Source of the DNA: a virus
Lineage: Duplodnaviria > Heunggongvirae > Uroviricota > Caudoviricetes
IMG/VR virus record: IMGVR_UViG_3300020576_002769
Location: 17,985-81,984 of that record
Length of the DNA: 64,000 nucleotides
Reading direction: 5' to 3' (one strand)
The position numbers and the translations under genes were made by a program. Shown here one piece after another: positions 1,171 to 63,428 of the stretch; the first letter of the stretch is position 1, and every line of letters starts with the position of its first letter. The notes below the pieces were generated by a model, which worked only from the letters and a program-made list of their open reading frames with translations, did not search any database and was not told where the DNA came from.

Positions 1171-2268
1171 ATCTTGTAATAATGAATAAATTTTGGATAT
1201 TTTTTTTAACATTTTTGATGAAATATAATTAATCTGTTTTAATTCGTATCTAAAAAATCGTTCATAATCTTCACCAAATCTATTAAGTTTATTAATATAT
1301 TTTATAAAATATTTTTTCTTTTTACCCTCAAACCCAAGTAATGTTTCAATAAAATTATCTGTTAATAATTGGTGCATTAAACCGCCTTTCCAATTAATCA
1401 TTGTTTCATAAAACTCTTTTAACGTAAAATCAACAATCTCTTCGTCTGACCCATTTTCCGGATACTGAATATTATTATCATCAAAAGTTGATTTTATCTC
1501 AGAGATATCATCCAATAATTGTTCTCTTAATTTTTCATAGGTTAATTGAGACGCGTCTTTATATGTTTGATAGGTTTTGTTATTAAGAATGAAATTATAA
1601 AATTCTTGTTTAGTAATCCCAAGTTCTTCCAATGATGAATATATTTCTGTTGGTCTAACTAAATTTTCCGTAATATGTGAAAAATACATATAATGGATAA
1701 ATTTATTTAAAGGTTCTATACCTCCAAAAGAACGTTTTGAACCGGTTTCATAATCAACACGTTTTGATGTGTTAATATTAGGGTTCATCACATCGTCGTA
1801 CGCGTGTTTAATTTCGTGAACCAAACTAGAAACTATCGTCACTCTATCTTTTCTAAATGTGTCGATTAAATCTTGAGTGGTTGTTTGAGAATTTACCGCC
1901 AACTTTATAAATAAATTAATCGTAGTTGGATTTGTTGTTGAGATATAATTAAAATTTTTAGCCATTTCTATAGTACCTCGTTGGGTCATTCCTAAAACAA
2001 TCAACTTAATATCATTATCGTTTAAATCATAATCATCCAAGTCCTGAAGTTTAAAATCAAGTATGATTCTATTAAAAGTAGTATTATTAATCACAAATGA
2101 ACCATTTAATTCTATCTCATTTGTTAAAAAATCTTGAATGTCTATATTTGGATGTAATATCGACATCATATTTTCATAAACTTGTCTTGCAATATCAACA
2201 ATGTTGGTAGGTACACCAACCGCTTCTGTTAATGTTTTATATTGATTTTCTTTAATTCTAATTTTCAT
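1153..2268 (-). CDS. putative HExxH zinc-metallopeptidase-like protein, member of the MKI.I.E N-terminal family
   Basis: HEIKH motif (LVHEIKHAYDD). N-terminus MKIRIKEN. Upstream ATATTTATAGAT-ATG motif. Confidence 0.5.
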   Translation of the reverse strand: MKIRIKENQYKTLTEAVGVPTNIVDIARQVYENMMSILHPNIDIQDFLTNEIELNGSFVINNTTFNRIILDFKLQDLDDYDLNDNDIKLIVLGMTQRGTIEMAKNFNYISTTNPTTINLFIKLAVNSQTTTQDLIDTFRKDRVTIVSSLVHEIKHAYDDVMNPNINTSKRVDYETGSKRSFGGIEPLNKFIHYMYFSHITENLVRPTEIYSSLEELGITKQEFYNFILNNKTYQTYKDASQLTYEKLREQLLDDISEIKSTFDDNNIQYPENGSDEEIVDFTLKEFYETMINWKGGLMHQLLTDNFIETLLGFEGKKKKYFIKYINKLNRFGEDYERFFRYELKQINYISSKMLKKISKIYSLLQDKNPQQ

Positions 2269-2350
2269 ATCTATAAATATATTTTAATAACTAGTGCTAG
2301 AAACTAGGCTACTAGTAATAATAAATATCTATAAAAATGCAAAAATTTGA

Positions 2351-2572
2351 TTATCTTCGTCTTCCACCGTAATAATGATGGTGATGAGGATTTGAAGGAT
2401 AAACATAAACCGGGGTAATAATTGGTTGATAAGTATATGGGGTGTAAAAATGATATACACGTCTTGGTCTTGGTTCCGGTCTTTGACGAATACCGTAAGA
2501 ATATACTACGGCCTGATAACCTTCACAAGAAGTTAAAACGACCAACATTAAAAGTAATAAAAATTTTTTCAT
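2351..2572 (-). CDS. small lipoprotein with His-rich C-terminus
   Basis: MKKFLLLLMLVVLTSC lipobox. Start taken at the internal Met of the track ORF. The overlapping plus ORF 2422-2625 is treated as spurious. Confidence 0.45.
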   Translation of the reverse strand: MKKFLLLLMLVVLTSCEGYQAVVYSYGIRQRPEPRPRRVYHFYTPYTYQPIITPVYVYPSNPHHHHYYGGRRR

Positions 2573-2652
2573 ATTTTCCAATAAAATCAAATATTATACC
2601 AATTCAGGTAATTATTTTCCATTAAAATCACATTTCTAACAAAAATTTTCCA

Positions 2653-2898
2653 CTATTTACGTTCATTGATAATTTGTTCAACATATTTATCTCTTTGTTC
2701 CAACAAATATTCGGTACGTTCAATTAATCTTTGTCTTTCACCGTCAGTTAATTTAAGTATTAAATCTTCCTTTTCCTTAATCATTTGTTTATATTCGTTC
2801 ATCTGAGATGTGAATACCATATTTTGATAATACATTATTCCGACTAATAAAATAATCGTAAATGATTGTTCTTTTAATTTTGATAAAAATTCATTCAT
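2653..2898 (-). CDS. hypothetical coiled-coil protein
   Basis: ORF that abuts the next gene. Confidence 0.4.
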   Translation of the reverse strand: MNEFLSKLKEQSFTIILLVGIMYYQNMVFTSQMNEYKQMIKEKEDLILKLTDGERQRLIERTEYLLEQRDKYVEQIINERK

Positions 2899-3287
2899 TA
2901 TTTTTTAATTGTTTTTACCGGGAATCCGAAATTATCCTCAAACCATTCAGCTAAAATAGGTTTCCATCTATTACCAAATAAATTTTCAAAGGTATCATAA
3001 TCGTCATCAGAATAAATCATAAGTATAGGAGATTCTTCAACTAATCTTTTAATTTTTTCTTCATTTTCATTACCAAAATCATCAGTTAACCAATAATCTT
3101 TTGAGTACCATCTAAACAAGTCTCCGTCATCACTAAAATTACCGGCATAAAATACTGCACCAATATCTGTTTCATTACCATCATCATCGAAGGCATAAGA
3201 CCAATTGATTTTATCAGGTTCATATTTGGAATTGATATATTTTAAAATATAATCATAAACCCTGTTTTCAGATATAATAAATTTCAT
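2898..3287 (-). CDS. hypothetical protein, MKFIISEN N-terminal family
   Basis: N-terminus MKFIISENRVYDYILKYINS. Upstream ATATTTATAGAT-ATG. Confidence 0.5.
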   Translation of the reverse strand: MKFIISENRVYDYILKYINSKYEPDKINWSYAFDDDGNETDIGAVFYAGNFSDDGDLFRWYSKDYWLTDDFGNENEEKIKRLVEESPILMIYSDDDYDTFENLFGNRWKPILAEWFEDNFGFPVKTIKK

Positions 3288-3289: not shown

Positions 3290-3796
3290 CTATAAATATA
3301 ACAATGAATCAATTTCATTTCCAATCTTCTTATAGACCGGACAATCCCGGTGAGGTTCTCTTTTCCCTATCGGAGTCTTAATAATTTTAACACCTAAGGA
3401 TTCAAATTTTTTGTAGTAGTTTTTAACTTTTGTATAAGTAATTCGTTTAACATTACCCCATCCCCAAGAACCCTGAACAACGTAAAGTTCGGCGTTTGGA
3501 AATGTCCTCCGGATTGTATTAATTAATGTTGAGATTCCCAAATCTAAATATCGGTCATTTGTCCCAATTGATATTACAATATTACAGATATCCGGGGAAA
3601 TTCGGTGGTTTTTAACCATTTTTGTTAGTTTTGGGACATTTATTCCTTTTTTCCATAGTCCAACACCTTTTTTAATTTTTGTTGAATGTAAATCAATATA
3701 TGGAGTTTGAGAGTCACCAATAATAAGATTGGGGTATGTTTGAGCATACCCCAAAGTTGAAAGTAATATTAAAAAATAAAAAAAATATCTAACCAT
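3290..3796 (-). CDS. secreted SGNH/GDSL-family hydrolase (esterase)
   Basis: Signal peptide MVRYFFYFLILLSTLGYAQ. Block I IIGDSQT (GDS). Block III GTND. A D..H-like block EPHRD. Confidence 0.65.
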   Translation of the reverse strand: MVRYFFYFLILLSTLGYAQTYPNLIIGDSQTPYIDLHSTKIKKGVGLWKKGINVPKLTKMVKNHRISPDICNIVISIGTNDRYLDLGISTLINTIRRTFPNAELYVVQGSWGWGNVKRITYTKVKNYYKKFESLGVKIIKTPIGKREPHRDCPVYKKIGNEIDSLLYL

Positions 3797-4310: not shown

Positions 4311-4469
4311 TTACCGACCAAGCATTAAATGAGTAATACCTTCATAATCGCACGGATACATAGTTTCCATTAATTTGTCAAGAAAAAATTCAACTTTACT
4401 CAATCTTCTTTTTATTGAAGAATCCATCTCCAATAATTTGTATTGTCTTTCTGTTATAATAAGTTTCAT
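4311..4469 (-). CDS. small protein (52 aa), MKLIITE N-terminal family
   Basis: Not in the track (<60 aa). Translates as MKLIITERQYKLLEMDSS... Preceded by ATATTTATTTAT-ATG. Confidence 0.4.
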   Translation of the reverse strand: MKLIITERQYKLLEMDSSIKRRLSKVEFFLDKLMETMYPCDYEGITHLMLGR

Positions 4470-4652
4470 ATAAATAAATATCCCCCCACTCTAAAAAAAA
4501 AATGACGAAATTTTTAATTAAACTATCAGACTTGATATGGTTACTAACAAACTAATCTTAATTTGTGTTTTACCCAACCTAAAATTTTTAATACATTAAT
4601 GTTAGGTATTTATATTAAAGTCATAACATGACATAACATTAAATTTAAAATT

Positions 4653-8665: not shown

Positions 8666-9043
8666 TTATATTTCTTCTTCAACAAAGTTATCAATAATAA
8701 ATTTTAGAGAAATACCAAACATACTAAGTCCCATAAGAGATAATAGTTCGTAGTCCTCAATACGTACACCATAAGTATCATTATAATATCCACTATAAAT
8801 GTGCCACTCCCTGTTTTCACGTTGTTGAGCCAACCATATACCGTTTTCCGGAGTACGAAACCAATACATAGGTCCCCATTCATTCAATAATTTATTAAAT
8901 CTTTCTTTACTCGGAAACATATAACGACAATCAACCGGGGCTCCCTCCCAACTTGTTATCATTTCAATTCTATCCGACAAGTTATACCCCAACGTTTTGT
9001 TGATTAAATTTAATAATCTGTCCTCAGTTATTGTAATTTTCAT
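8666..9043 (-). CDS. hypothetical protein, MKITITED N-terminal family
   Basis: N-terminus MKITITEDRLLNLINKTLGYNLSD. Upstream GTATTTATTATT-ATG. Confidence 0.5.
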   Translation of the reverse strand: MKITITEDRLLNLINKTLGYNLSDRIEMITSWEGAPVDCRYMFPSKERFNKLLNEWGPMYWFRTPENGIWLAQQRENREWHIYSGYYNDTYGVRIEDYELLSLMGLSMFGISLKFIIDNFVEEEI

Positions 9044-9058
9044 AATAATAAATACCCG

Positions 9059-9370
9059 TTAGGACTGAATATACTTAATATCAACACCAAAATAGGTTTC
9101 AAACCAATTTTTGATTACCGATTCGGCTTGAGATTCATCCGGAAAATAAAGGGTTGCAAAATTTCGAATAAAATCATTATCAACATATAATCGTCCGTCC
9201 TCATAATCATATTCCATTAAAACTTCAGACAAATCATAATCATCCATATTTTCCGATGGATAATATATAATAATAAAATTATCAAACGAAGATACGTTAT
9301 ACCCAATGAGTTTATTCAGATAATTTATCTGCAAGTCCAAAAGTTTATTTTCAGAAATTATAATTTTCAT
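9059..9370 (-). CDS. hypothetical protein, MKIIISEN N-terminal family
   Basis: N-terminus MKIIISENKLLDLQINYLNKLIGYNVSS. Upstream ATATTTATTGTT-ATG. Confidence 0.5.
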   Translation of the reverse strand: MKIIISENKLLDLQINYLNKLIGYNVSSFDNFIIIYYPSENMDDYDLSEVLMEYDYEDGRLYVDNDFIRNFATLYFPDESQAESVIKNWFETYFGVDIKYIQS

Positions 9371-9408
9371 AACAATAAATATCCGGACAATTCAAAACGT
9401 GGGGATAA

Positions 9409-14993: not shown

Positions 14994-15028
14994 ATAAAAA
15001 ACCCCACTTAATCAAATGTGGGGATAGG
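14994..15028 (-). terminator. rho-independent terminator after the HNH gene
   Basis: On the minus RNA: CCCCAC-AUUUGAUUAA-GUGGGG followed by UUUUUU. Confidence 0.6.
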
Positions 15029-16093
15029 TTTAACTTTTATATCAACATTATCTTTATAATCAATTGATATCTCATAATACGGAAACTTCTCTTTAAGGTA
15101 ACTCTTAAATGTCATTTGATTACCCTTCTTCAAATTGTCCTCAGCCCATAAAGGTTGAAAATTTGTATAATGACATAACTTCTTGATTTCTTCTAAAGTC
15201 TTAGCAGACGATATTGGAATGATGTGGTCAATATGCCAACCATAAAACCCATAGTTCTCCCAAGACATACCTTCCAAAAAATTAATCTCCAAATATTTTC
15301 TGAACTCCTCAGGTGTACATCCAATCATCTTAAACATTGGACTATCCTTTTTAGCCCCAATCTGTTTTATATATTGTTTAGTTCTATTACGAAGGTTACA
15401 TATCGCACGATAAAAAGGGTCTTTCTGTTTTCTTGATTTATGATACTCTTTTTTCTTAGTTGGATTATTTTCACGATATATCTTTCTACTCACCTTAATC
15501 TTATTCGTGTTGTTTTCACGATATTTTTTCTTAGTATTCTTAACCTTAGTTGGATGCTCAAGTCTATAAATCCTAATCCTTTCTTTTTCACATTCCCCAC
15601 ACTTTGTAACAGAACCTTTATAAAATTCAGATATAGGTTTGGTTAATCCACATTTATTACAAGTACTTTCAATCAAACTCTCCTGAATCATATCAATCTT
15701 TTCCTTACGAGTTAATTTAACTTTTACTGAATTGATTAATATAAAAGGTTTATTTGGATAATACCATATAATCTTAGAATATTTATCATTAATCTTTTTA
15801 GTCTTAGAATATTTATCATTAATCTTTTTAGTCTTAGAATATTTATTATTAATCTTTTTAGTCTTAAGAATATTTTTATCATATGTTTTTTCAGTTTTTC
15901 CTACCTTATTCTTCTCTCTATATCTCCTCTTAGATTCTTTTACCTTATCCGGATTATTCTTACGATATCTTTTTTTATCAATATTACAACACTCCCGACA
16001 TTGATAATGCAAACCATCAGAAGAACTCTTACGATTATTGAATTCTGACAATCCCTTCTCAATACCACATTTTGAACATCTCTTTAATTCCAT
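15008..16093 (-). CDS. HNH homing endonuclease with N-terminal zinc ribbons and an internal K-rich tandem repeat
   Basis: C-terminal WHIDHIIPISSAKTLEEIKKLCHYTNFQPLWAEDNLKKGN. N-terminal CSKCG..C..C motifs. It is a paralog of 59272-59991. Confidence 0.75.
   Translation of the reverse strand: MELKRCSKCGIEKGLSEFNNRKSSSDGLHYQCRECCNIDKKRYRKNNPDKVKESKRRYREKNKVGKTEKTYDKNILKTKKINNKYSKTKKINDKYSKTKKINDKYSKIIWYYPNKPFILINSVKVKLTRKEKIDMIQESLIESTCNKCGLTKPISEFYKGSVTKCGECEKERIRIYRLEHPTKVKNTKKKYRENNTNKIKVSRKIYRENNPTKKKEYHKSRKQKDPFYRAICNLRNRTKQYIKQIGAKKDSPMFKMIGCTPEEFRKYLEINFLEGMSWENYGFYGWHIDHIIPISSAKTLEEIKKLCHYTNFQPLWAEDNLKKGNQMTFKSYLKEKFPYYEISIDYKDNVDIKVKPIPTFD
15773..15872 (-). repeat. 33-bp in-frame tandem repeat (about 3 copies) inside the HNH gene
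   Basis: CTTAGAATATTTATCATTAATCTTTTTAGT repeated three times. It encodes the KTKKIN[ND]KYSK repeats. Confidence 0.7.
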
Positions 16094-16126
16094 AAAGGCA
16101 AAAATAATAAATTATTTATTTTTGTA

Positions 16127-16150
16127 AATTTTTTCCAGAATTTTTTTTAC
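16127..16150. repeat. direct repeat TTTTTTCCAGAATTTTTTT, copy A
   Basis: Same ~19-mer recurs at 16244-16268. A variant TTTTTTTCCAAAAATTTTTTTTT occurs at about 14648-14670. Confidence 0.4.
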
Positions 16151-16243
16151 TATTTGAGTAATTACCAACACTAAAGAATATTCCCCCAAATAACTTTAGT
16201 AATTCCCCACATATATAATAACCGGATACTAATTAACCGGGGG

Positions 16244-16268
16244 ATTTTTCCCCCAATTTTTTTCCAGA
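16244..16268. repeat. direct repeat TTTTTTCCAGAATTTTTTT, copy B
   Basis: See copy A. Confidence 0.4.
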
Positions 16269-16350
16269 ATTTTTTTAAGAATACTTCGTCTACGGGATTA
16301 TACCCCTATTTTGGGTATAAAAGGGGGGAGGAAGGGAGGTAGGATACGTC

Positions 16351-16417
16351 CCCCACCCATAGGGGAGCCCCCCTATGGGGTCTAATGGGGGTGGGATATA
16401 AATAACCCCCCATTAGG
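16351..16417. other. GC-rich nested-palindrome structure
   Basis: CCCATAGGGG-AGC-CCCCTATGGG is a 10-bp perfect stem. CTAATGGGGG ... CCCCCCATTAG is a second stem enclosing GGGATATAAATAA. Confidence 0.5.
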
Positions 16418-16862
16418 TGGAGGGTTTATAATCGACAATGAAGTTATTGATTTTAAACGATGATTCCATTATGGCTTGGTCACCTGTGAATTGACTAACG
16501 AAGAGATAAGTCCTTTGATATTCTCGGGGGATTTGTTTATAGAAGAACTCGCACCACTTCTCCATATCTTTCTTTGTGTTGTATGGTACCTTCCAACCTA
16601 TTGGTGATGTTAGGTACGCATCCAATGAGTAAGCAGTACTACCGATATACTCAGGGTCTCTCTCTATGAATCTTTGTTTGGCGTATGGTCTTATTGGTAC
16701 CCCGAAGTAATCAGATACCTTATCATAATCAACAATGATATCGATGAATGAGACTCTATACTCATCAAAGTTACGGGAAGGTTTCCATCCTATTACGAAG
16801 TTATATTTCCTCTTTAATGATTTGACTGTCATATCAAATCCTTTTTTTACATTATTATCCAT
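16413..16862 (-). CDS. hypothetical protein (GC-richer than the surroundings)
   Basis: ORF of 149 aa. Upstream ATATTTATTGTT-ATG. Confidence 0.4.
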   Translation of the reverse strand: MDNNVKKGFDMTVKSLKRKYNFVIGWKPSRNFDEYRVSFIDIIVDYDKVSDYFGVPIRPYAKQRFIERDPEYIGSTAYSLDAYLTSPIGWKVPYNTKKDMEKWCEFFYKQIPREYQRTYLFVSQFTGDQAIMESSFKINNFIVDYKPST

Positions 16863-17065
16863 AACAATAAATATTCTTATCTTTTTATTTGGCCAATTGA
16901 AATATTCTTTATACCTTTGTGTCGATAGACCGACTCGTTAGAGGAGTAGGACATTACCGGGGGAACCTTCATCGACAGATGAAGAACCAATCCGGATGGG
17001 GGCGTACCTTTTTAATCGGGGGTGGAAGAGTAGACGGATGGGTGCTCCATATTTTTATATATAAA

Positions 17066-17482
17066 TCAATCGTCTTCTCGGTAGTAGATGTCTGTCCGGT
17101 GTTCGTATATCTTTAAGTCCCCCACTATCCACTTGTTCTTTTCATCCACCTCACACACTACGTTCTTGTTGAAGTTATCTTTCCACCACAACATTCGTAG
17201 ATTATCTATGTGTGCAATATGTTTTGGGGGAATGTTATTATCAAATCCCCACTTTATACTAATCTTATGGTCTATGTGATATTTATGCCACCCCCGATTC
17301 TCAATCCCTTCTATAAGATGTTTAACCTTCTCGGTTAGTTCCATTACTTTCTCTTTATATAAATCAAACTTAGTTAGTGGTTTCTTCTTTTTACCTTTAG
17401 TCTTAGGTTTAATCGTTCTCTTCGGTTTTGGTTTCTCAGACCAAATAGGGGTTAAATCAATTTTCTTACGTAGTAGTCCCAT
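17066..17482 (-). CDS. HNH endonuclease
   Basis: WHKYHIDHKISIKWGFDNNIPPKHIAHIDNLRMLWWKDNFNKN. Composition is GC-richer than the window average. Confidence 0.65.
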   Translation of the reverse strand: MGLLRKKIDLTPIWSEKPKPKRTIKPKTKGKKKKPLTKFDLYKEKVMELTEKVKHLIEGIENRGWHKYHIDHKISIKWGFDNNIPPKHIAHIDNLRMLWWKDNFNKNVVCEVDEKNKWIVGDLKIYEHRTDIYYREDD

Positions 17483-17582
17483 AGTATTTAATGTTTTATC
17501 AATATAAATATCTATTCTTTGATAAAAACATAATCTAAACCGGACATTAATTTACAAATCAATAATTAAAACCGGAGATTTT

Positions 17583-17613
17583 TTTGTGAATTCCATAATT
17601 TGTATTATCTTTG
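17583..17613 (+). promoter_or_regulatory. Bacteroidota sigma-A-type promoter (TTTG-N19-TATCTTTG)
   Basis: TTTGtgaattccataatttgtatTATCTTTGtggg, followed 19 nt later by the ATG at 17633. Confidence 0.45.
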
Positions 17614-17632
17614 TGGGCTAAAATAGATTTGT

Positions 17633-17776
17633 ATGATTGTATTAGTTATTCTTGCTGTCTTGGTGATAGGGATGTTCCTTATTGATATACACGTAATCCC
17701 CCACCTTTCTTCGGATAATAAGTTCCGGAAGTGGTTTAAGACTTATCTTATTGATGATGACCCCGACCACGAATAA
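17633..17776 (+). CDS. small hydrophobic protein (47 aa)
   Basis: MIVLVILAVLVIGMFLIDIHV... Below the track threshold. It has its own promoter and overlaps the 3' end of 17748-18131. Confidence 0.35.
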   Translation: MIVLVILAVLVIGMFLIDIHVIPHLSSDNKFRKWFKTYLIDDDPDHE

Positions 17777-18131
17777 ACATCTCCACCTGATGTAGGGAAT
17801 GTTCCCTTATCTCCATATTGACCTTATTTAAATCCCCCTCGTTAAGTGGGGATTTTTTGTTTATCTCATCTATCACCCCGGACATATCACAATGGGTCAT
17901 AATTAATACCTCCTGTTTTATTCTGTTCCCCACTCTTGTTAGGACATAATGACAGGTTCCCATTCCATAATCTACCACATAGGTTTCTCCGGATTGTATA
18001 ACTGAAGGTTTTTCGTTGTTTAGGTACCCCGTCGGAAACGTGTTTTCGTACATATAATTTCTTTTATTATAAGTATATAAAATTGGGTTCTCGATGTAAA
18101 GAGGGGGAATTGTCTGTGTCAGATTTTCCAT
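17748..18131 (-). CDS. hypothetical protein
   Basis: ORF of 127 aa. A palindrome lies immediately upstream of its ATG. Confidence 0.4.
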   Translation of the reverse strand: MENLTQTIPPLYIENPILYTYNKRNYMYENTFPTGYLNNEKPSVIQSGETYVVDYGMGTCHYVLTRVGNRIKQEVLIMTHCDMSGVIDEINKKSPLNEGDLNKVNMEIREHSLHQVEMFIRGRGHHQ

Positions 18132-18134
18132 TTT

Positions 18135-18149
18135 CTGACAAAATGTCAG
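18135..18149. promoter_or_regulatory. operator-like perfect palindrome CTGACA-AAA-TGTCAG
   Basis: Located 3-17 nt upstream of the ATG of 17748-18131. Confidence 0.35.
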
Positions 18150-18692
18150 TCTGATTCATAATGGGGATAATCCCTTTCCCCACTTTTAACCCCCACCGGT
18201 AATACATTCCTTACCACTTTTTACCACCCATTATGGTCGTGCCGATAGTGTGAAGACCAATTTTTTCCCCCTGAGAGTATCAGGAAGACCAATTATTTTG
18301 ATAGTAGTGTTTCCCAGTAAAAAATGTTTATTATGAATGGTAACGCGGTGGAACACGTAGTGTGTTAGAGAAGTATCTTCAACGACCCCGAATAGGGGAT
18401 AAATTTAACCACTAATGGACGATTTAATGATTTATAATATGGGACACCATACAGACACAAAACACCATTAAAAGTATCGATAGACCGACCGAAGGAAGTT
18501 ATCATTTGTATCCGGATTGTGAGTTTTAAACTGACTACACTGATACAAAACATAACTTACCATAACAAGAACTCATCCGGATTATATTCATTTACATATA
18601 ATTAACCACTTGTGGTTCCCTTTATATGTATTTGCGTATAATCCACCATAACAATAATGTTAGTGTCCCTTAATCGTCCCCTTCTTTAGAGG

Positions 18693-26933: not shown

Positions 26934-26967
26934 ATTAATAAATATCTTTAAAAATAAAAACCCCCAA

Positions 26968-28768: not shown

Positions 28769-28821
28769 ACCGCAAATATAAGAATAAAAAAAAGAACCAC
28801 AAAATGATTCTTTATATTTTT

Positions 28822-29202: not shown

Positions 29203-29221
29203 AATAATAAATAGTCATTAA

Positions 29222-29250: not shown

Positions 29251-29825
29251 AGTTTCATTTCATTTTCATCAATTCAAGAATTTCTTTTTGAAGTTCCAAC
29301 ATTTCAGGGTCTGTCTCCATAATGTAACGAGTTTTCATATCGTGATAGTTCTCTTGGATATCTGAAAAACACCATCCAAGGAACACAAACCATAATTTAA
29401 CTCTTATTTTTATTTTCTTTAACCACATCTTTAATTAAATCAATAATAACTATTAAACACATAACCCCAACAAGGGAAATCATAAAATATCCCGGACCAA
29501 CAGGGTCAGAAGGTACCATCAATATTAAGTTTTAATTTTTATTTGCTATAAATATATTACTCACCTAATTTATTTCGATACTCTATAATTAATTTTCTAA
29601 TTTCTTGCCCTAATTCCATATCGTTAGGTATTTTTTTCTCTAACGAATCCGAATCTTCATAAAAATCAACGAAAATCAGTACATCATTTACTTCTTCCAT
29701 ATTACTTATTTAAATATTCTTGTTTTATGCGTCGAATAACTCTTGAGAATAACATTATCATAATGTAAAACCAAGAGAATAGTCCAATAATTATTACACC
29801 TAATAATATATATTTATACCACATA

Positions 29826-34667: not shown

Positions 34668-34707
34668 ATTGTTGTAATCTATTTAATAAATATGTATATT
34701 TATAGTT

Positions 34708-37683: not shown

Positions 37684-37705
37684 TATATTTATAACTAAAA
37701 AGATT

Positions 37706-42040: not shown

Positions 42041-42067
42041 TGTATTTTTATTTATAAATATCACATA

Positions 42068-45517: not shown

Positions 45518-46418
45518 TAATATAATTTAAAATTATTTCCTCAAAACATTCTTGATACCCATTAAATTTTAACAAAGGATTATATTTATGATTTTTGAAT
45601 TTATTTAATAAATCTCGTTCTTTATTATAAACAAACTCATAATCACCATTTATAATATTAAGTATATCATATTCATAACCTAAATGAGATAAAAATAACA
45701 TTCTTTCATTAATAGATTTGTAAGTTCTACCTATTTTAATAAAACTTTCATATTTATTATAAATTTTTATAATATAAACAACAGGATTACCATTATTTTT
45801 AATACCTACTGATTTCCATTTTTCTAATGTCCATCCAATATGATTTGTTGTTAAATTATTTATAGTGTTCTCAACACCGCATTTAGGACATCCACACCCA
45901 CGTAAATGATTAACAGGTTGTTGTGAAAAAATACCGTGAGTCGGACAAATAATATTAATTAATTTTCTAGTATCATAATACTTAACTAAAGAATAATCAT
46001 AAATCTCTCCGTGTATTTTTTTAGATTTTTTAATAAAACCATCAGTTTTATCTATTGCACTTTTTAAACTAGGTGTAGAAAAATCCTTTCTTAACAAATC
46101 TCCACACCAACATTTATAAATAATATCATCATTATCTTTAACTAAAATTTTATCATTAAAATTAGTGTATCCCGAAATATATGTTAAATTATTTTTTACT
46201 TTTAATATTGTCCTTATATATTCTTCAACATTATCAGAAGTTTTAATTGTTGGGTAACATCCTTTAAGTAAAGACCCCGGATATACATTATACTTTAACC
46301 CTAACTTATCTTCAACCAATATTTTATTTTTAGTCAAAGTGTATTCACCAATAATCTTAATGTCAGGTAAAATTTGTTTTATTTGTTTTACAAAATTTTC
46401 GTGTGTTATTTTTTTCAT
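45507..46418 (-). CDS. zinc-ribbon protein with C-terminal GIY-YIG-like (T5orf172-type) domain
   Basis: CPTHG...GCGCPKCG and NPVVYIIKIYNKYESFIKIGRTYKSINERMLF. Upstream ATATTTATATAAGT-ATG. Confidence 0.5.
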   Translation of the reverse strand: MKKITHENFVKQIKQILPDIKIIGEYTLTKNKILVEDKLGLKYNVYPGSLLKGCYPTIKTSDNVEEYIRTILKVKNNLTYISGYTNFNDKILVKDNDDIIYKCWCGDLLRKDFSTPSLKSAIDKTDGFIKKSKKIHGEIYDYSLVKYYDTRKLINIICPTHGIFSQQPVNHLRGCGCPKCGVENTINNLTTNHIGWTLEKWKSVGIKNNGNPVVYIIKIYNKYESFIKIGRTYKSINERMLFLSHLGYEYDILNIINGDYEFVYNKERDLLNKFKNHKYNPLLKFNGYQECFEEIILNYINED

Positions 46419-46489
46419 ACTTATATAAATATATTAAAAATATGGAAAATACACATCGTCCCGAACATTTTTGATATACTATTTCCCTA

Positions 46490-55641: not shown

Positions 55642-55680
55642 CAAAAAAAACCTCAACAAATTTTACTCTGTTGAGGTTTC
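55642..55680 (-). terminator. rho-independent terminator after the Nudix gene
   Basis: On the minus RNA: AACCUCAACAGAGUAAAAUUUGUUGAGGUU followed by UUUUUUUU. Confidence 0.6.
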
Positions 55681-55771
55681 AATGTGTCCAACCGATAATT
55701 TCAGAAAGGAGGTTGTTGGCTATGAAACTATAAATATTATGAAAATTTAAAAAAGTTAATTTTTTTTATTG

Positions 55772-56202: not shown

Positions 56203-56568
56203 TTGCGTATTTATATGTATATGGAACTAATAATAAATAAAAACAAATTCAAAGTCAAAACTGTAATATCATCAAAAGACACTAGTCGAGGTATGATGAA
56301 CAAAAAATTTGACGATACATTTAACGGTATGTTATTTATTATGTCTGAAGGACAACACTGCTTTTGGATGAAGAATTGTATTATACCACTCGATATTATT
56401 TTCATCGACAATGGTATTATAACAAAAATTCACCACAATTGTCCCCCTTGTAAAAGTAAGGAATGTAAGAACTACTGTGGTGAAGGTGATACTATCCTTG
56501 AAATTCAGGGAGGTACTTGTAAAGAGTTGAATATTAAGATTGGTGATTCAATTCATTCGTTAGATTAA
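56203..56568 (+). CDS. DUF192-family protein
   Basis: FWMKNCIIPLDIIFIDNGIITKI matches the DUF192 core (from memory). The true start may be an internal Met at 56215 or 56221. Confidence 0.5.
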   Translation: MRIYMYMELIINKNKFKVKTVISSKDTSRGMMNKKFDDTFNGMLFIMSEGQHCFWMKNCIIPLDIIFIDNGIITKIHHNCPPCKSKECKNYCGEGDTILEIQGGTCKELNIKIGDSIHSLD

Positions 56569-56993
56569 TCTAAACCGAAAAAGTGTAATCCTTTATCAAA
56601 AATATCCCCCTCGTCAGAAATACATTGTTTAAATATTTGAACGTCATTGTTTGGCATCTTATTTTGAGTTTCAGGACCCCAAACACCATCCGCTGTTACA
56701 CCAATCTTGGATTGATATTTACTTAATGCTTCGGCCGTTTTACCAGCTAACAATCCATCAACTTTTAATGGTTGGTTAGAATCGTCTTTGAACCCTTTTT
56801 TATTTAGAAAACATTGGATAGCTTTCTTCATTCTAACATCATCACTTTGTTCCATAACAAGTGGTTTAACATCCCCTAATTTAGTATTAACTAATTTTGA
56901 GAAATTTTCGTTCACAATCTTCATTCCTCCGGTATGTTGCTCACGGATTGCGTTTTTTTCCTCCTCCGTTAAATTATTTAATAAATGTTTCAT
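56565..56993 (-). CDS. peptidoglycan-binding-domain protein (possible lysis-associated)
   Basis: KVDGLLAGKTAEALSKYQSKIGVTADGVWGPETQNKM is PG_binding_1-like. Upstream ATATTTATAAATAAAAATATAATT-ATG. Confidence 0.5.
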   Translation of the reverse strand: MKHLLNNLTEEEKNAIREQHTGGMKIVNENFSKLVNTKLGDVKPLVMEQSDDVRMKKAIQCFLNKKGFKDDSNQPLKVDGLLAGKTAEALSKYQSKIGVTADGVWGPETQNKMPNNDVQIFKQCISDEGDIFDKGLHFFGLD

Positions 56994-57023
56994 AATTATA
57001 TTTTTATTTATAAATATCCGGGA

Positions 57024-57052: not shown

Positions 57053-57910
57053 TAATTCTAATTCTAGTTGTTTTCTTTCTTCAATAAACGCATTTACACG
57101 TTTTCTTGCAATATCAGTATAACTTGGTGATAGTTCAATTCCCAACCATTGTCTTTCCAAAATCTCCGCAGCCACCGCTGAGGTTCCACTACCCATAAAA
57201 GGGTCAAGGACTATATCATTTTTATATGATAATATCTTAATTGCCTTCATTGGAATATCCATTGAGAAGGTTGCTTTGGTTAATGATTTGGTATCCGCAA
57301 AATATTCCCATCGGCCAAACACCAATTTCATAAATTCTTTTTTATCTTCTTCTTGGTAGAGTACTTTATTTTTGATGGTTCCATCAGGTTGTTCAACATC
57401 AGTTACGATACCTTTCCATTGAGATTCCCCTTTTGTTAGTTTCTTATTTGTTTTTTTGTACGCCAATATCACACATTCTTTCGGATTGTAGATGTAAGGA
57501 CAACTAGCACTCATCCAACTCCCCCAAGCCGTTTGTCTAACTCGATGTGGTGAGTCTTCAGTTAAATCAACCATTCCAAAGAATTTGAATCCAACTTGTT
57601 TCATCATCATCCAAAACTCAGCATTGAATAGAATTCTTCCCCCTCTTTCTTGAACGTTTAATTCTATTGGAACATTTATTGCGACTCTACCATCGTCTTT
57701 TAATATTCTTAATGATTCCGATAACCACTCTCGGGTGAACCCCCAATAATCATCCATTGAACGTCCATCATCATATACATCATATTTAACATTAACATTA
57801 TAAGGACAGCTAGTAACCATTAAATCTATACATCCCTCAGGTAATGTTTTCATTACCTCAACACAATCTCCATTAATTATTGTATTTATAATATTCTCTA
57901 AATCTTTCAT
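57041..57910 (-). CDS. beta-class N6-adenine/N4-cytosine DNA methyltransferase
   Basis: Motif IV-like TSCPYNV (an S-C-P-Y variant of SPPY) is N-terminal. Motif I DPFMGSGTSAVAA is C-terminal. That order is the beta class. Confidence 0.8.
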   Translation of the reverse strand: MKDLENIINTIINGDCVEVMKTLPEGCIDLMVTSCPYNVNVKYDVYDDGRSMDDYWGFTREWLSESLRILKDDGRVAINVPIELNVQERGGRILFNAEFWMMMKQVGFKFFGMVDLTEDSPHRVRQTAWGSWMSASCPYIYNPKECVILAYKKTNKKLTKGESQWKGIVTDVEQPDGTIKNKVLYQEEDKKEFMKLVFGRWEYFADTKSLTKATFSMDIPMKAIKILSYKNDIVLDPFMGSGTSAVAAEILERQWLGIELSPSYTDIARKRVNAFIEERKQLELELKEE

Positions 57911-58670
57911 ATATTTCTTTTTTTCTTTCTAAATAAACAGTTGCGTTATTGTAAATGTAATTATAAAATTTGTTATTATCAATTTTATTTTGAATTAAAA
58001 GACTAATTCCTCCATAGTAATTAACTTTAATATCATTTTTTAACAATTCTTCAATCAAAAAACCTCTAAAACTTTCAGACGCACAGGCAATACCGGTTGT
58101 ATTATGTTTTTTCTCAACAAATCTAAAAGTCCCATCACCATCAAAGTATCCCCTAACAAAATGATTCATTAAAGAATCATTAATTTTAGGTTGTTCAATT
58201 GTAAATGTTTTTCTTGAATGGAACCCTTGAGTTTTAATTGATTTAACCAATTGTTGTGAATATATTGCCAATGATGACATATGTGATGACGAAACCCCAC
58301 CTTTATATTTAACAGTATTAAACCCATCCACAATTTTATGATTAGACTCTATAGATTCACGAAATCGTTCTAAATGGTGTTTATCTTTAATCGATAATTT
58401 CATTTCTAATGAGTTACCGGATTTTCTTTCTCTAATATAACCATCAGCATAAAGAAATCCTAACCAATAAGCCTTTTCTTCTGTATCTATTATGTCGAAA
58501 TAATTATGATTAACATAATATCTTCTGTTAGTTAATTCAAACCCATTTAATTTAAGAATCCTATTAATCGGTGATATTGATACATTAAAATATTCTGCAA
58601 CTTTATGAATACTTTTTAATTGTTTGTACTGATTTACAACATCAGTTTCATTTAATAATAACTTCTCCAT
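57873..58670 (-). CDS. LAGLIDADG homing endonuclease
   Basis: Two LAGLIDADG motifs: YWLGFLYADGYI and FVRGYFDGDGTF. Its 3' end overlaps the MTase 5' end by 38 nt. Upstream ATATTTATTAGT-ATG. Confidence 0.75.
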   Translation of the reverse strand: MEKLLLNETDVVNQYKQLKSIHKVAEYFNVSISPINRILKLNGFELTNRRYYVNHNYFDIIDTEEKAYWLGFLYADGYIRERKSGNSLEMKLSIKDKHHLERFRESIESNHKIVDGFNTVKYKGGVSSSHMSSLAIYSQQLVKSIKTQGFHSRKTFTIEQPKINDSLMNHFVRGYFDGDGTFRFVEKKHNTTGIACASESFRGFLIEELLKNDIKVNYYGGISLLIQNKIDNNKFYNYIYNNATVYLERKKEIYERFREYYKYNN

Positions 58671-58719
58671 ACTAATAAATATCAGTTAGTTAGGAGAAGT
58701 AACAATAAAGAATAATAAA

Positions 58720-59022: not shown

Positions 59023-59138
59023 ATTTTTTAATTTATAAAATTATAGTTATTTTATTTAATATTGTCTATTATTAAAAAATATTTTTTATAAAGTATAACT
59101 TTTCATACTTTTCGTGATATTTATATATAAAGACAATT

Positions 59139-59291
59139 ATGAAACCAAGAAAAAAAGAAGAAGATAAAAAAATTAAATTCGCAATTAGTTTAGACCCTAA
59201 ACTTTTTAAGAGAATGGATAAGGAAATGATAAACAAATCAAGATTGATTGAAAATTTAATTAGAGAATATTATGGAAACAAAGATTTGTAA
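59139..59291 (+). CDS. small ribbon-helix-helix-like protein (50 aa)
   Basis: MKPRKKEEDKKIKFAISLDPKLFKRMDKEMINKSRLIENLIREYY shows a beta-strand/helix/helix pattern. Below the track threshold. Overlaps the HNH start by 20 nt. Confidence 0.4.
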   Translation: MKPRKKEEDKKIKFAISLDPKLFKRMDKEMINKSRLIENLIREYYGNKDL

Positions 59292-59991
59292 TAAGTGTAA
59301 AGAAGAAAAAGAGATTTGTGAATTTGGTGTAAATAAATCAAACAAAGATAAACTTCAAAGTATCTGTAAATGTTGCGATAAATTAAAATCAAAAGAATAC
59401 AGAGAAAAGAATAGAGAAAAATACTTGTTATCCCAAAAAAAATCTTATTATGAAAATAAAGAAAAACGGTCTATATCTAGTAAACAATATTATAAAGATA
59501 ATAGGGATAATATTATTAATAGAAATAAAAAATATTATCGTAATAATATAGACAAATATAAAATTACAAAAAAAGAATGGCACGAAAAAAATAAAGAAAA
59601 AGTTTTAAAAAAATCAAAAGAATATAGTCAAAAAAATAGGAAATTATTATCAGAATACGAAAAAAATAGACGACATACTGACCCATTATTTAGAACCGTA
59701 AGATATGTCAGAAATAGAATTAACCAATACCTAAAATCTAAAAATTTTAAGAAAAACAGTCAATCATTTGAACTCGTTGGTTGTTCTCCTGAAATACTTA
59801 AAAACCATATTGAAAATCAATTCACCGAAGGAATGACTTGGGAATTAATGGGTAGATACATTCATATAGACCACATAATACCATTATCATCCGCAAAAAC
59901 CGAGGATGAAGTAAAAAAATTATGTCATTATACTAATCTACAACCTTTATGGGCTAAAGATAATTTAATAAAATCAAATAAAATAGAATAA
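59272..59991 (+). CDS. HNH homing endonuclease (paralog of 15008-16093)
   Basis: N-terminal CNKCK..C..C zinc ribbon. C-terminal YIHIDHIIPLSSAKTEDEVKKLCHYTNLQPLWAKDNLIKSN. Confidence 0.75.
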   Translation: METKICNKCKEEKEICEFGVNKSNKDKLQSICKCCDKLKSKEYREKNREKYLLSQKKSYYENKEKRSISSKQYYKDNRDNIINRNKKYYRNNIDKYKITKKEWHEKNKEKVLKKSKEYSQKNRKLLSEYEKNRRHTDPLFRTVRYVRNRINQYLKSKNFKKNSQSFELVGCSPEILKNHIENQFTEGMTWELMGRYIHIDHIIPLSSAKTEDEVKKLCHYTNLQPLWAKDNLIKSNKIE

Positions 59992-61032: not shown

Positions 61033-61189
61033 CCTCTGTTAAACCTTCAACATACCAGTAATAAACTTTTGAAGAGATTTCATCTAAAAAAATAATGGCA
61101 TCAGCGTTAAATAATTTTTTTAACCCCAATCCATTATTTATATAAATTTCGATTGTTTCTTTATTTACGTATCTTTTATTAAAACTCAT
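60971..61189 (-). CDS. hypothetical protein
   Basis: ORF of 72 aa. Confidence 0.35.
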   Translation of the reverse strand: MSFNKRYVNKETIEIYINNGLGLKKLFNADAIIFLDEISSKVYYWYVEGLTEDEIKSNLYKNGQESNQSVNG

Positions 61190-61953
61190 TGTAATAATTT
61201 TCTAACAACTTTTTCGCTCTGATGAATATATGATAATATCTTTCGTTTAAATATCGGTAGTAGAGTTTGTTCTAATGGAAACACATCACTACAAAACACT
61301 TCAAACACAGGATAAGTACTCTCGTTATTCTTTTCGTATGTTTTAGAAAATTTAGAGATAATTTCTGAGATAGTCAAATTATTTTGCTCACCTTCATAAA
61401 TTAATTTTAATGAAGTTTTAGTTTGTCCATTTGTTTTATAAATTCTTCTTGTAGTGTATTGCCAAATATAGACTTTTTCAGGCGTTTTATAAGTGAAGAA
61501 CCCGGATTTGCTTTGGAGATTGTTTTTATTTTTCTTTACAACAACATCAATAGAATCATAAACTATACTCCATATTGATTTAGCAAAGTTAAAATAATCG
61601 TAAAGTTGTGGCTGACTATTCTTTAATATTTTGTGATATTCAACCACCTCTTCATCATCCAATACAGGAATATCCTTAACCTTCAAATCAGATAACACCA
61701 GTTCATCGTCATTGGAGGTTAATTTCCTGTCGGTATATAAAATTTTGTTTTGGGTTAATAATGTTTGCATATTCCCTAAGTGAAGGGAAAGCTCTATAAA
61801 CATAGGATATACTTCCATTCGTTCAAGATATTGATTCATCTTTTGGAAGTAATCTAATAAAACATATTGTTTTTGTTCCGCATCAAGAATACCATCGAAT
61901 AACCAATCGGTATTCATAATAAAATTGTTCTTATTTTTTCGTTTCTTTTCCAT
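61186..61953 (-). CDS. hypothetical protein
   Basis: ORF of 255 aa. Confidence 0.45.
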   Translation of the reverse strand: MEKKRKNKNNFIMNTDWLFDGILDAEQKQYVLLDYFQKMNQYLERMEVYPMFIELSLHLGNMQTLLTQNKILYTDRKLTSNDDELVLSDLKVKDIPVLDDEEVVEYHKILKNSQPQLYDYFNFAKSIWSIVYDSIDVVVKKNKNNLQSKSGFFTYKTPEKVYIWQYTTRRIYKTNGQTKTSLKLIYEGEQNNLTISEIISKFSKTYEKNNESTYPVFEVFCSDVFPLEQTLLPIFKRKILSYIHQSEKVVRKLLQ

Positions 61954-61999
61954 ATTCTATAAATAAAGATAAAATAAAAAATGGAAAAAATGAATAGTT

Positions 62000-63358
62000 T
62001 TAGTTAATTCTCATTACATAGTATGTTATACCATTAACATCTTCGTAGTCATAATTACCATCATAATCATTCATAACACCATAACCATCAGCATCAACTA
62101 ACCCTTGAGCTAAAGCATCCTCATCAATATAATTTTTAATATCTAATCCCATCTCTTTTAGATAATTTAAAGGGTCTCTTCTAACGTATCTAACATATTC
62201 TTCCACTTTATCCTCAATCATTTCTTCCGTTGGTTCAGTTTCAGGTTCGATACTGTCTAATTCTTCTTGAAGAGCGTCGATATGGTTTTGAAAGTCCTCA
62301 TAAAAGTCATCATAATTTTCATCATCAGGGTCTAAGTCCGATTGTTGTTGTTCAAAGTCAGCAATTTCAGATTCAAGTTCCTCAATTCTTCTTTCTTGTT
62401 CCGGAGTTAATTCAAAGTCACTATCATCAAAGTAACCTTCAGGATAATCTCTAATTTGAGAATCATAATCTTCCTCAGCCATTCTAACAATTTCGTCTTC
62501 ATCTAAATAATCATCAATAAATCCGGCTCTAAACCCATCAAGTCCCACATCATCAATAAAACTTTTAGCATACTCTAAAGCACCACTCTCCATTTCTTCC
62601 TCGGTACCCACGGTATATTCTCTATCTTTAAACCCGTCAATTAAAACTTCAAATGTTGTTAATCCATAATGAGTGTACTTTCTTGGGTACATCATATATA
62701 CATCCACATTATTTTCTTCTAACTCTTCAATTTCTTCTTTTGTTTCTTCAATAGCATCAAACAAATCAGACACTCTATCACTATCTTCGATTTCTTCATA
62801 CTCTCTTTCTAAATCTTGAAGTTTTCTTTTTAGAATAATAAGTTTTTCTTTATCATCATCTGATAAAGGTTCAATATCACCGTTATTTTCCAAATAATCA
62901 AATAATGCGTGAGCCTTTTCACCTAATTCGTCCGTATTTTCAAGGTTCCATTCATCATCTTCTCGAAGTGATTCTTGTTCGGATAATTTTGCGTTTAATT
63001 CTTGTCTTTCTCTAATTTTCGCTCTTTTACTATCATAATCACTAACATACCCTTTAACATTCGTCCCTTCAATTGATGAAATATTAGTTCTTGAAATGTT
63101 TAAGTTTCCTTCAACATACCCAACGTTACCCAAACTGTCTGTTGGTGTACCATCAAGATTTAAATCCCCGGTAATCCATAATGGTTTCCCTTGGAATTTT
63201 TTCATTTTAGTTACCGCTTTACCGTGATAACTACCGTAACTCATTAGTTCCAAATATTCTTCCGGACTAATTTTATAATATTCATCCTCAACTTGTTCAG
63301 CAAGTCTTCTAATATATTGAGATAACTCTTCCCTATTTAATTGTATTTTTCTACTCAT
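62000..63358 (-). CDS. hypothetical acidic coiled-coil protein
   Basis: ORF of 452 aa, very Glu/Asp-rich. Upstream ATATTTATAGGT-ATG. Confidence 0.45.
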   Translation of the reverse strand: MSRKIQLNREELSQYIRRLAEQVEDEYYKISPEEYLELMSYGSYHGKAVTKMKKFQGKPLWITGDLNLDGTPTDSLGNVGYVEGNLNISRTNISSIEGTNVKGYVSDYDSKRAKIRERQELNAKLSEQESLREDDEWNLENTDELGEKAHALFDYLENNGDIEPLSDDDKEKLIILKRKLQDLEREYEEIEDSDRVSDLFDAIEETKEEIEELEENNVDVYMMYPRKYTHYGLTTFEVLIDGFKDREYTVGTEEEMESGALEYAKSFIDDVGLDGFRAGFIDDYLDEDEIVRMAEEDYDSQIRDYPEGYFDDSDFELTPEQERRIEELESEIADFEQQQSDLDPDDENYDDFYEDFQNHIDALQEELDSIEPETEPTEEMIEDKVEEYVRYVRRDPLNYLKEMGLDIKNYIDEDALAQGLVDADGYGVMNDYDGNYDYEDVNGITYYVMRIN

Positions 63359-63428
63359 ACCTATAAATATTCACAAAGATATAAAATATATTTACAAATT
63401 ACCATTATGTTTGATATTTATTAGTAAT

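Follow-up and report, generated by a model that had tools for sequence, protein, structure and literature searches.

A strand-oriented upstream 8-mer as a candidate clade-specific promoter, with predicted leaderless transcripts, in uncultivated jumbo phages

The stretch of phage DNA studied here (the window, 64 kb) comprises bases 17985-81984 of a 106-kb metagenomic source contig (JGI 3300033069 Ga0364485_10109), the flanks of which were also read. Upstream of many of its genes the 8-mer ATATTTAT is found, and in 13 genes this word, or a variant with another first base, ends exactly 4 nt before the ATG (N4; the number gives the nucleotides between motif and start codon throughout). It is very probable that ATATTTAT is a promoter-type DNA signal and likely that the N4 genes give leaderless transcripts, and a phage sigma factor is slightly favored as the protein that reads the motif. 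Taken as a whole, the account of a clade-specific promoter class that would be leaderless at N4, would be read by a phage sigma factor and would serve a middle or late regulon is moderately favored on the basis of sequence comparison.

Occurrence, conservation and strand orientation of the motif

An earlier note on this DNA had listed 15 start sites preceded by the motif. Each site was read and the motif was present as described at all 15, with [A/G/C]TATTTAT ending exactly 4 nt 5' of the ATG at the 12 starts for which this had been claimed and with looser spacing at 42040 (N13), 46418 (N6) and 56993 (N16). The same word was recovered when every 8-mer in the 40-nt regions preceding 129 starts was counted without prior assumptions; here ATATTTAT ranked first (20 of the 129 genes, p = 2e-17) and the host-type TATCTTTG second (14 genes, p = 1e-12). 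A thirteenth N4 site, absent from the earlier list, was found on the plus strand (34696-34703, gene 34708-35355), and once the variants with G or C as first base are included the N4 genes number 13:

2273..2280, minus strand: ATATTTAT, N4, gene 1153-2268 (371 aa, no assigned function)
3292..3299, minus strand: ATATTTAT, N4, gene 2898-3287 (MKxxI[ST]E family), site inside the 3' end of the upstream gene
4474..4481, minus strand: ATATTTAT, N4, gene 4311-4469 (52 aa)
9048..9055, minus strand: GTATTTAT, N4, gene 8666-9043
9375..9382, minus strand: ATATTTAT, N4, gene 9059-9370
16867..16874, minus strand: ATATTTAT, N4, gene 16413-16862
20528..20535, minus strand: ATATTTAT, N4, gene 20041-20523, terminator-like hairpin and T-run directly before the site
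23507..23514, minus strand: ATATTTAT, N4, gene 23074-23502, terminator-like hairpin and T-run directly before the site
26938..26945, minus strand: ATATTTAT, N4, gene 26604-26933, downstream of a terminator-like hairpin
29207..29214, minus strand: CTATTTAT, N4, gene 28822-29202, downstream of a terminator-like hairpin
34696..34703, plus strand: ATATTTAT, N4, gene 34708-35355, one half of a back-to-back divergent pair
58675..58682, minus strand: ATATTTAT, N4, gene 57873-58670 (LAGLIDADG-type endonuclease), conserved in the related loci L013 and L014
63363..63370, minus strand: ATATTTAT, N4, gene 62000-63358 (452 aa)

The strict form ATATTTATNNNNATG had 11 matches in the window compared to 0.41 expected, a count that was never reached in 100 dinucleotide-preserving shuffles. 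The core heptamer TATTTAT occurred 80 times window-wide compared to 70.5 expected and was not over-represented; therefore, the signal lies in the position of the motif and not in base composition. Among the 39 copies of ATATTTAT in the window, 26 fell within the 12% that is non-coding. Almost every non-coding copy was oriented toward the next gene, and at least 25 sense-oriented copies preceded transcription units at spacings of 4-7 or 13-28 nt. As expected of a promoter element, the motif thus precedes transcription units and points in the same direction as the gene that follows. The base just 5' of the ATG was T in all 13 N4 sites compared to 57% of other genes. A generic sigma-70 promoter scan of the window was uninformative (141 hits, 127 expected).

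Megablast of the window and tblastn of the 452-aa protein found no close cultured phage, and relatives are abundant in IMG/VR (77 loci via a conserved 142-aa protein and 252 via an SbcC-like protein), with contigs of up to 322 kb and ∼30% GC. Therefore, the window belongs to an uncultivated clade of jumbo phages. In 14 diverse loci of this clade, together holding 363 genes, ATATTTAT also ranked first among upstream 8-mers (49 genes, p = 2.5e-40), whereas its reverse complement ATAAATAT was found upstream of only 6 genes. The motif of the 452-aa gene and its N4 spacing were invariant in 8 diverged orthologous loci with 56-92% protein identity, while the flanks changed and the adjacent TATCTTTG box decayed. 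The motif of the divergent partner gene at 63414..63421 was also kept, its reverse complement ATAAATAT being invariant in the alignment. For the 371-aa gene, two orthologs (L016 and L017) retained [G/A]TATTTAT-N4-ATG behind a different upstream sequence.

All-against-all blastp showed almost no similarity between motif genes, and paralogy was rejected as a trivial cause of the motif, as most of these genes are not paralogous. The paralogs that do exist, in the MKxxI[ST]E family, share 17-33% protein identity and yet keep the exact 8-mer and its spacing. Members of this family are small proteins with the N-terminus MK[IFL]xI[ST]E[ND][KR] and a C-terminal W...F...V motif; they comprise 2898-3287, 9059-9370, 26604-26933 and 26245-26604, probably joined by 8666-9043, 28822-29202, 4311-4469 and 1153-2268. 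Most members have an N4 motif of their own, and no Pfam or PHROG match was found for the family. Gene 26245-26604, a paralog of 26604-26933, lacks the motif and has a 4-nt overlap, and is therefore operon-internal.

Inside coding sequence, 26 antisense copies of the motif were seen compared to 67 expected from codon-shuffled genes, which makes the antisense copy the fifth most depleted among 243 A/T-only 8-mers; for the sense copy, 40 were seen and 58 expected. Because the depleted strand is not part of the mRNA, this avoidance suggests a signal at the DNA level.

In the Tenacibaculum jumbo phage PTm1 (AP019524.1, bases 1-50000) no enrichment of ATATTTAT was found. As PTm1 also has a Bacteroidota host, ATATTTAT is therefore clade-specific and not a general feature of the host. 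The top upstream heptamer of PTm1 was ATACATA (10 genes, p = 1e-9); it is often embedded in catatacata-like runs ahead of structural genes and may be the promoter word of PTm1 itself.

Spacing classes, host-type promoters and transcription units

Besides N4, spacings of N6, N7, N13 (three sites), N14, N16, N18, N21 and N28 were found in the window, and in relatives the distances between motif and ATG were bimodal with peaks at 4 and 13-18 nt. The sites of the window outside the N4 class are:

698..705, minus strand: ATATTTAT, N13, GIY-YIG gene starting at 684 that runs off the window start (L001 21766-22040, 362 aa)
2321..2328, minus strand: second ATATTTAT of gene 1153-2268, 52 nt 5' of the same ATG
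17504..17511, minus strand: ATATTTAT, N21, gene 17066-17482 (endonuclease VII-like)
29548..29555, minus strand: ATATTTAT, N28, small gene 29397-29519
34686..34693, minus strand: ATATTTAT, N18, gene 34152-34667, other half of the divergent pair
37685..37692, plus strand: ATATTTAT, N13, gene 37706-38410 (DUF6878)
42054..42061, minus strand: ATATTTAT, N13 with A-rich leader, gene 41714-42040, downstream of a terminator-like hairpin
46425..46432, minus strand: ATATTTAT, N6, gene 45507-46418 (DUF723/HNH-type endonuclease)
55730..55737, minus strand: ATATTTAT without an open reading frame (ORF) 3' of it, heading the non-coding unit 55643..55725
57010..57017, minus strand: ATATTTAT, N16, gene 56565-56993 (PG_binding_1), downstream of a terminator-like hairpin
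59117..59124, plus strand: gtgATATTTAT, N14, genes 59139-59291 and 59272-59991 (HNH/endonuclease VII-like)
63414..63421, plus strand: ATATTTAT, N7, divergent GIY-YIG gene starting at 63429 that runs off the window end

At leadered sites the fifth base after the motif was A in 27 of 30 independent groups, and A-richness started exactly at this base. The trinucleotide at this position was mainly AAA, ATG, ATA or ACA in 550 unique clade contexts, GTG and TTG were not among the common ones, and all N4 sites had ATG. Orthologs of one leadered gene differed in the distance to the ATG (N15 to N18) with the motif and the next nine bases fixed, and the N4 spacing did not drift in any ortholog compared.

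In the proposed mechanism, (T)G-ATATTTAT would be the core element of a clade-specific promoter, acting as a -10 or '-7' box, and RNA polymerase would start ∼5 nt past the 8-mer, in most cases at an A that follows a T. With N4 spacing this A would be the A of the start codon, giving a leaderless mRNA for the 13 window genes, and with spacings of 13-21 nt an mRNA with a short A-rich leader would result. Like leaderless mRNAs, the N4 genes start with ATG and are without the upstream initiation region typical of other genes, since the A-rich -12..-3 region of the latter is replaced by the T-rich motif. The N4 spacing places the 8-mer at -12..-5 from the A of the ATG, and in Flavobacterium psychrophilum the sigma-A box TAnnTTTG is located at -12 to -5 from mapped starts (PMC9723704). 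Directly 5' of the motif, G was found at 51 of 106 non-redundant sites (background 12%) and TG at 23 of 106 (background 4.7%), and a T-tract lies 11-17 nt upstream. The upstream TG recalls extended -10 promoters, and these features together suggest a promoter. TTTG at -33 was not enriched.

The host-type promoters named in the earlier note (TTTG-N19-TAnnTTTG) are present and suggest a Bacteroidota-type host; the one at 17633 fronts a small ORF on the plus strand. As had been stated, the motif genes lack TAnnTTTG boxes, except for 63358 and the divergent 63429, where such a box abuts the motif, and the combination that defines Bacteroidota sigma-A promoters, TAnnTTTG with TTTG ∼19 nt upstream, was not found at the motif sites. 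The claim that Shine-Dalgarno sequences are missing everywhere holds for nearly all genes, and fails for 1 of 128, which has a Shine-Dalgarno-like core in -20..-4. One host-type promoter served as comparator:

28773..28780, minus strand: TTTG-N19-TATATTTG, gene 28259-28768, -7 box followed by cggt-ATG and thus also N4

Because this canonical host box also has N4 spacing, it appears that the phage places both kinds of box such that transcripts would be leaderless.

Several host-type promoters (10307, 13038, 24345, 24722, 32455, 40231 and 44375) share more sequence than the Bacteroidota consensus, namely TTTGG(T/A)G(G/A)nT(T/A)AAAAAnTAnT(T/A)GTATCTTTG, and this extended conservation recalls that of T4 early promoters. 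At 17583-17633 on the plus strand, a consensus host-type promoter is followed by a very small hydrophobic ORF from 17633 (MIVLVILAVLVIGMF...), which reads antisense toward gene 17748-18131.

The arrangement of the genes was compared with both signals. The median upstream gap was 2 nt for genes with neither signal, 49 nt for motif genes and 76 nt for host-box genes; therefore, genes without either signal are operon-internal. Gaps of at least 30 nt contained the motif in 18 cases, a host box in 18, both in 2 and neither in 23, several of the last being errors of the rough gene caller. Six motif sites had a terminator-like hairpin within 90 nt upstream. Concerning two of these modules, the proteins of 18866-19792, 20041-20523 and 23074-23502, which are otherwise dissimilar, all begin MNLQ(E/K)N; two of them continue MNLQENIxRIK and the third has a similar LQETIRRIL ∼25 residues in. 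Two of the three genes stand behind near-identical modules of terminator hairpin (GAAGTAACATTCTC) and motif, which suggests cassette-like shuffling of 5' ends.

One copy of the motif is predicted to drive a small non-coding RNA:

55643..55725, minus strand: candidate small RNA of ∼83 nt without ORF, behind the motif at 55730..55737

In this unit a 5' hairpin (CCAAC/GGUUGG), whose loop is rich in C and U, precedes an intrinsic terminator, and the predicted fold has -24.8 kcal/mol (z = -4.05). Including its motif it is conserved in five other distinct relatives (L006, L008, L009, L011 and L014), and no Rfam family matched the candidate. The loop reads ACCUCCUUUCU in this phage and CCCC(C)UUUCU in relatives, so its exact sequence is not conserved; ACCUCCUUUCU is presumably identical to the anti-Shine-Dalgarno tail at the 3' end of 16S rRNA in Bacteroidota. 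At this ORF-less copy, a translation signal has no role.

A candidate sigma factor and competing explanations

A 266-aa protein with Sigma70 regions 1.2, 2 and 4 was first met in a 215-kb relative, and the identical protein is encoded on the source contig (record 100318-101118, L179:4916-5716), ∼18.3 kb past the window end and on the strand of most window genes. Its Pfam domains are Sigma70_r1_2, r2 and r4, and SigA/RpoD chains in the PDB matched with E-values between 1e-46 and 1e-35. The protein is similar to RpoD and RpoS, although its scores stay under the NCBIfam equivalog cut-offs of both families, and by sequence comparison its regions 1.2, 2 and 4 contain the core-binding and DNA-melting residues of the sigma-70 family. 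The protein is 75-91% identical across 70 clade loci and very common in metagenomes. In tblastn all matches stayed below 40% identity and no close cultured phage was found; the nearest cellular homologs (∼40% identity) are mostly primary sigma factors of Bacteroidota and other members of the FCB group. Compared to cellular sigma factors, regions 2.3/2.4 (FISYAVWW[V/I][K/R]QSILQ) and the helix of region 4.2 (TKERVRQIKEKAL) are almost unchanged. Region 1.2 is altered (YLKDIRK instead of YLQEIGK) and followed by a six-residue insert, and ∼24 residues of region 3 are missing. A 4.5-kb contig with 34% GC (L192, CAYRYW010000094.1), labelled as a Dehalococcoidales metagenome-assembled genome, encodes a sigma factor 68% identical to that of the phage and also carries ATATTTAT-N18-ATG; this contig is probably a piece of phage DNA that was binned with the wrong bacterium.

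The enzyme acting at the motif would most likely be the host core polymerase with this 266-aa sigma factor. In the source contig and relatives, the sigma gene lies in a two-gene operon behind a host-type TATCTTTG box; the sigma factor would thus be made from a host-type (early) promoter and the ATATTTAT genes would form a later, middle or late, regulon. Homing-endonuclease-like genes of the LAGLIDADG, GIY-YIG, HNH/DUF723 and EndoVII/HNH types stand behind the motif, with further examples in the flanks. The PG_binding_1 protein of 56565-56993 matches the binding domain of endolysin families, and its orthologs keep cccggATATTTATaa. In relatives, motif genes encode an SLT transglycosylase, a Dam methylase, leucine-rich repeat (LRR) proteins and a conserved 428-489-aa protein; most motif-driven genes gave no family matches. 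The endonuclease and lysis-type genes would fit a late or middle class. On a walk along relatives of 215-321 kb, genes for the sigma factor, SbcC/SbcD and a primase-like protein were met, as was a series of large genes (801-1634 aa), of which some stand behind the motif (N17, N15 and N5). A block of such large genes, some with leucine-rich repeats, is found at L274:15561-24688 and L191:10001-22433 (IMGVR_UViG_3300031951_000002, 321 kb); only a few relatives have this block, and part of it lies behind motif copies. Against PHROGs, Pfam and PDB the large genes yielded no usable annotation, the sole weak match being a neck-whisker protein (E = 0.0016).

The phage-specific promoter with leaderless or near-leaderless transcripts that the earlier note had suggested is supported by the conservation of N4, the -12..-5 geometry, the leadered class, the non-coding RNA copy, the antisense depletion in genes and the sigma factor on the same contig. 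Several points weigh against this account. The independent N4 cases are fewer than 13, since by alignment one diverged N-terminal family takes in 5-7 of the 13 genes. In the same register, the 8-mer matches the host box at two T positions only. When the TA of the motif is aligned with that of the host box, TATTTAT(W) shares TA..T.T with TAnnTTT(G), but the A of the ATG then lies one base ahead of the canonical start and the expected start moves to the T of the ATG; given the T-A initiator, this offset is within normal start-site flexibility. The motif has no -33 TTTG although region 4 of the sigma factor is intact, and with its host-like regions 2.3/2.4 and 4.2 helix the sigma factor might read host-type boxes and not ATATTTAT. 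At the small RNA, all orthologs have T (TCA) as the fifth base past the motif, and therefore the start would fall 1-2 nt further on. No recognizable capsid or tail genes were met on the walk along relatives, which leaves the timing unsupported. In those Bacteroidota hosts that have been studied, few mRNAs are leaderless: the share is 5.5% in F. psychrophilum (PMC9723704), and in Bacteroides thetaiotaomicron 3.7% of 5' untranslated regions are shorter than 10 nt (PMC7366714).

The main rival keeps the promoter and assigns it to another reader, either host sigma-A with a phage co-factor of the T4 MotA/AsiA type or a gp55-like late sigma factor encoded elsewhere in the ∼320-kb genome, with the RpoD-like sigma factor serving TTTG-N19-TATCTTTG. 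This is an appreciable minority possibility, for which the near-identity of regions 2.3/2.4 and the 4.2 helix to Bacteroidota sigma-A argues, as does the resemblance of an 8-bp element without -33 box to T4 late promoter architecture. SbcC/SbcD-like (gp46/47-like) genes adjoin the sigma gene, a neighborhood that resembles the T4 gene 46-47-55 order. On the other hand, gp55, gp33, MotA, AsiA or a sliding-clamp activator did not appear in the Pfam lists of the loci read, which cover ∼100 kb, less than one third, of the ∼320-kb genome and were not accompanied by a targeted search. Host sigma-A suffices for the host-type class, as the sigma operon itself uses a host-type box, and the (T)G 5' of the motif suits an RpoD-like sigma factor in extended -10 mode. 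Comparative genomics has revealed RpoD-like sigma factors in gp23-type jumbo phages, Bacteroidota phages among them, and group 2 jumbo phages have been reported with both minimal and RpoD-like sigma factors plus gp33, which would suit the other reader; no promoter motif is given for the RpoD-like sigma factors in that overview (PMC7824862).

That the motif acts on RNA as a translation signal, the alternative of the earlier note, is disfavored and considered improbable. It would then be the operator of a RegA-like repressor or an AU-rich enhancer in place of the A-rich initiation region, and the strict N4 in 13 genes and their orthologs and the replacement of the A-rich -12..-3 region by the motif would fit. 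T4 RegA operators are likewise AU-rich and abut the AUG of many early-region genes, and we take ATTGTTATG, present in three sites, to resemble the T4 RegA SELEX consensus. RegA sites, however, are degenerate and abut or overlap the initiation codon in all targets, whereas the motif is exact and often 13-28 nt away; most clade copies lie 13-18 nt from the ATG with a distance that drifts among orthologs. A conserved copy without ORF, depletion in genes of a strand absent from those mRNAs, location directly after terminators, the promoter-like upstream G/TG and T-tract, and absence from PTm1 despite its Bacteroidota host also argue against a translation signal, and no Translat_reg (RegA) domain was present in the Pfam lists of the loci read.

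Still less credence is given to an RNA processing site at which a phage endoribonuclease, like T4 RegB, would cut polycistronic RNA just 5' of genes. A fixed, strand-specific place near the 5' ends of cistrons would agree with this, but antisense depletion in genes is unexpected for an RNA site, motif copies are often downstream of intrinsic terminators where there would be little read-through RNA, and the divergent copies at 34686-34703 and 63363-63421 lie between opposed genes that would have no common precursor.

The poorest candidate is an opposite-strand late promoter of the T4 type ([T/A]ATAAATA) or a functionless passenger of duplicated or mobile cassettes: the reverse complement of the motif contains the T4 late core ATAAATA, several motif genes are homing endonucleases or belong to one paralog family, and the terminator-motif modules presumably recall the PeSL cassettes of T4-type phages, yet orientation follows the downstream gene, the N4 link to the ATG on the sense strand is left unexplained, unrelated genes carry the motif too, diverged paralogs keep it, and it is fixed while flanks diverge. 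On the orientation counts, the opposite-strand promoter was rejected. T4-type late promoters have TATAAATA on the non-template strand upstream of genes, a pattern that was not found: TATAAATA was sense-oriented upstream of 10 of the 363 clade genes, with 101 copies in total, and was not enriched. The earlier note had described the motif as the reverse complement of the T4 late element, possibly by coincidence. The reverse complement of TATAAATA is TATTTATA, so the description is right where the base following the motif is A and wrong otherwise, and the strand bias of the clade upstream regions supports the suspicion of a coincidence.

Genome context, known systems and implications

The window has ∼30% GC and ∼128 mostly small genes, 109 of which are on the minus strand, with ∼88% coding sequence. 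No tRNAs were found in the window, and Rfam gave no matches for the window or for region 16000-19000 searched separately. Genes of nucleic acid metabolism in the window interior and the flanks encode RNA ligase, polynucleotide kinase, thymidylate synthase, thioredoxin and glutaredoxin, as well as Dam and N4/N6 methylases, Thg1 and many GIY-YIG, HNH and LAGLIDADG endonucleases. Two tandem repeats were observed. A 30-bp repeat at 15772-15875 (3.4 copies, 97% match) lies within the EndoVII/HNH gene 15008-16093, and each of its units has an antisense ATATTTAT, so that 3 of the window's 10 antisense copies inside genes stem from this repeat. A 66-bp repeat at 21110-21331 (∼3.4 copies, 75-84% match) spans the 3' part of gene 20875-21240 and the gap after it.

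Each of the known systems shares part of the features of the motif. Bacteroidota sigma-A promoters likewise have an 8-bp element at -12..-5 from the presumed start, a T-A initiator, no Shine-Dalgarno sequence and short leaders (PMC9723704). In contrast to that box, the motif lacks the terminal G, has A for T at the sixth position of the shifted register and is without -33 TTTG, with (T)G and a T-tract upstream instead, and a genuine host-type class exists separately in the window. T4 late promoters (TATAAATA; gp55 with gp33 and gp45) are also single, phage-specific, A/T-only 8-bp elements near -10 without a -35 partner, use the host core with a phage sigma factor, as is proposed here, and often precede homing-endonuclease genes. 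The sense word here, however, is ATATTTAT and not TATAAATA, many transcripts would be leaderless, and the candidate sigma factor is a full RpoD-like protein with region 4, unlike the minimal T4 gp55. In the SPO1 cascade (gp28, gp33/34), and with group 2 RpoD-like sigma factors, an early, host-transcribed phage sigma factor redirects the core polymerase, as is proposed here; the present sigma factor differs in lacking ∼24 residues of region 3, and its pairing with the motif is a proposal. In the leaderless promoters of Actinobacteria, Deinococcus and archaea, the spacing between a -10-type element and the start codon is short and constant, the A of AUG is the first base transcribed (as we infer for the N4 genes), no upstream ribosome-binding region is present and ATG is required. 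Here, by contrast, a single phage regulon would be concerned, in a host phylum with rare leaderless mRNAs, and the same element would also drive leadered genes. With respect to the RegA operators discussed above, the motif further differs in one copy having no ORF and in its strand avoidance at the DNA level.

To our knowledge, there is hardly any work on how transcription is controlled in phages of Bacteroidota. Genomes have shown that there are jumbo phages that use the host polymerase and encode RpoD-like sigma factors of their own. No cognate promoter for this clade was described in the literature and phage collections searched, and nothing relevant was found on ATATTTAT as a phage promoter word. 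The present finding provides a clade-wide promoter word with a defined geometry and a candidate sigma partner, from which 5' triphosphate ends at the A of the ATG are predicted. For hundreds of contigs from uncultivated phages, the motif can be used to annotate transcription units and to correct start codons, and the pair may be an orthogonal sigma factor and promoter for genetic tools in Bacteroidota. It also raises the question how efficiently leaderless messages are translated by Bacteroidota ribosomes, which use no Shine-Dalgarno pairing. As a tentative idea, considered rather doubtful, a diverged host-type primary sigma factor with changed region 1.2 and short region 3 may retarget the polymerase to a variant '-7 box' in front of a largely leaderless regulon plus a small RNA, so that transcription and the mode of translation initiation would be switched together. 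If this is true, the motif genes could stay expressed when initiation that depends on A-rich leaders is shut down or remodelled.

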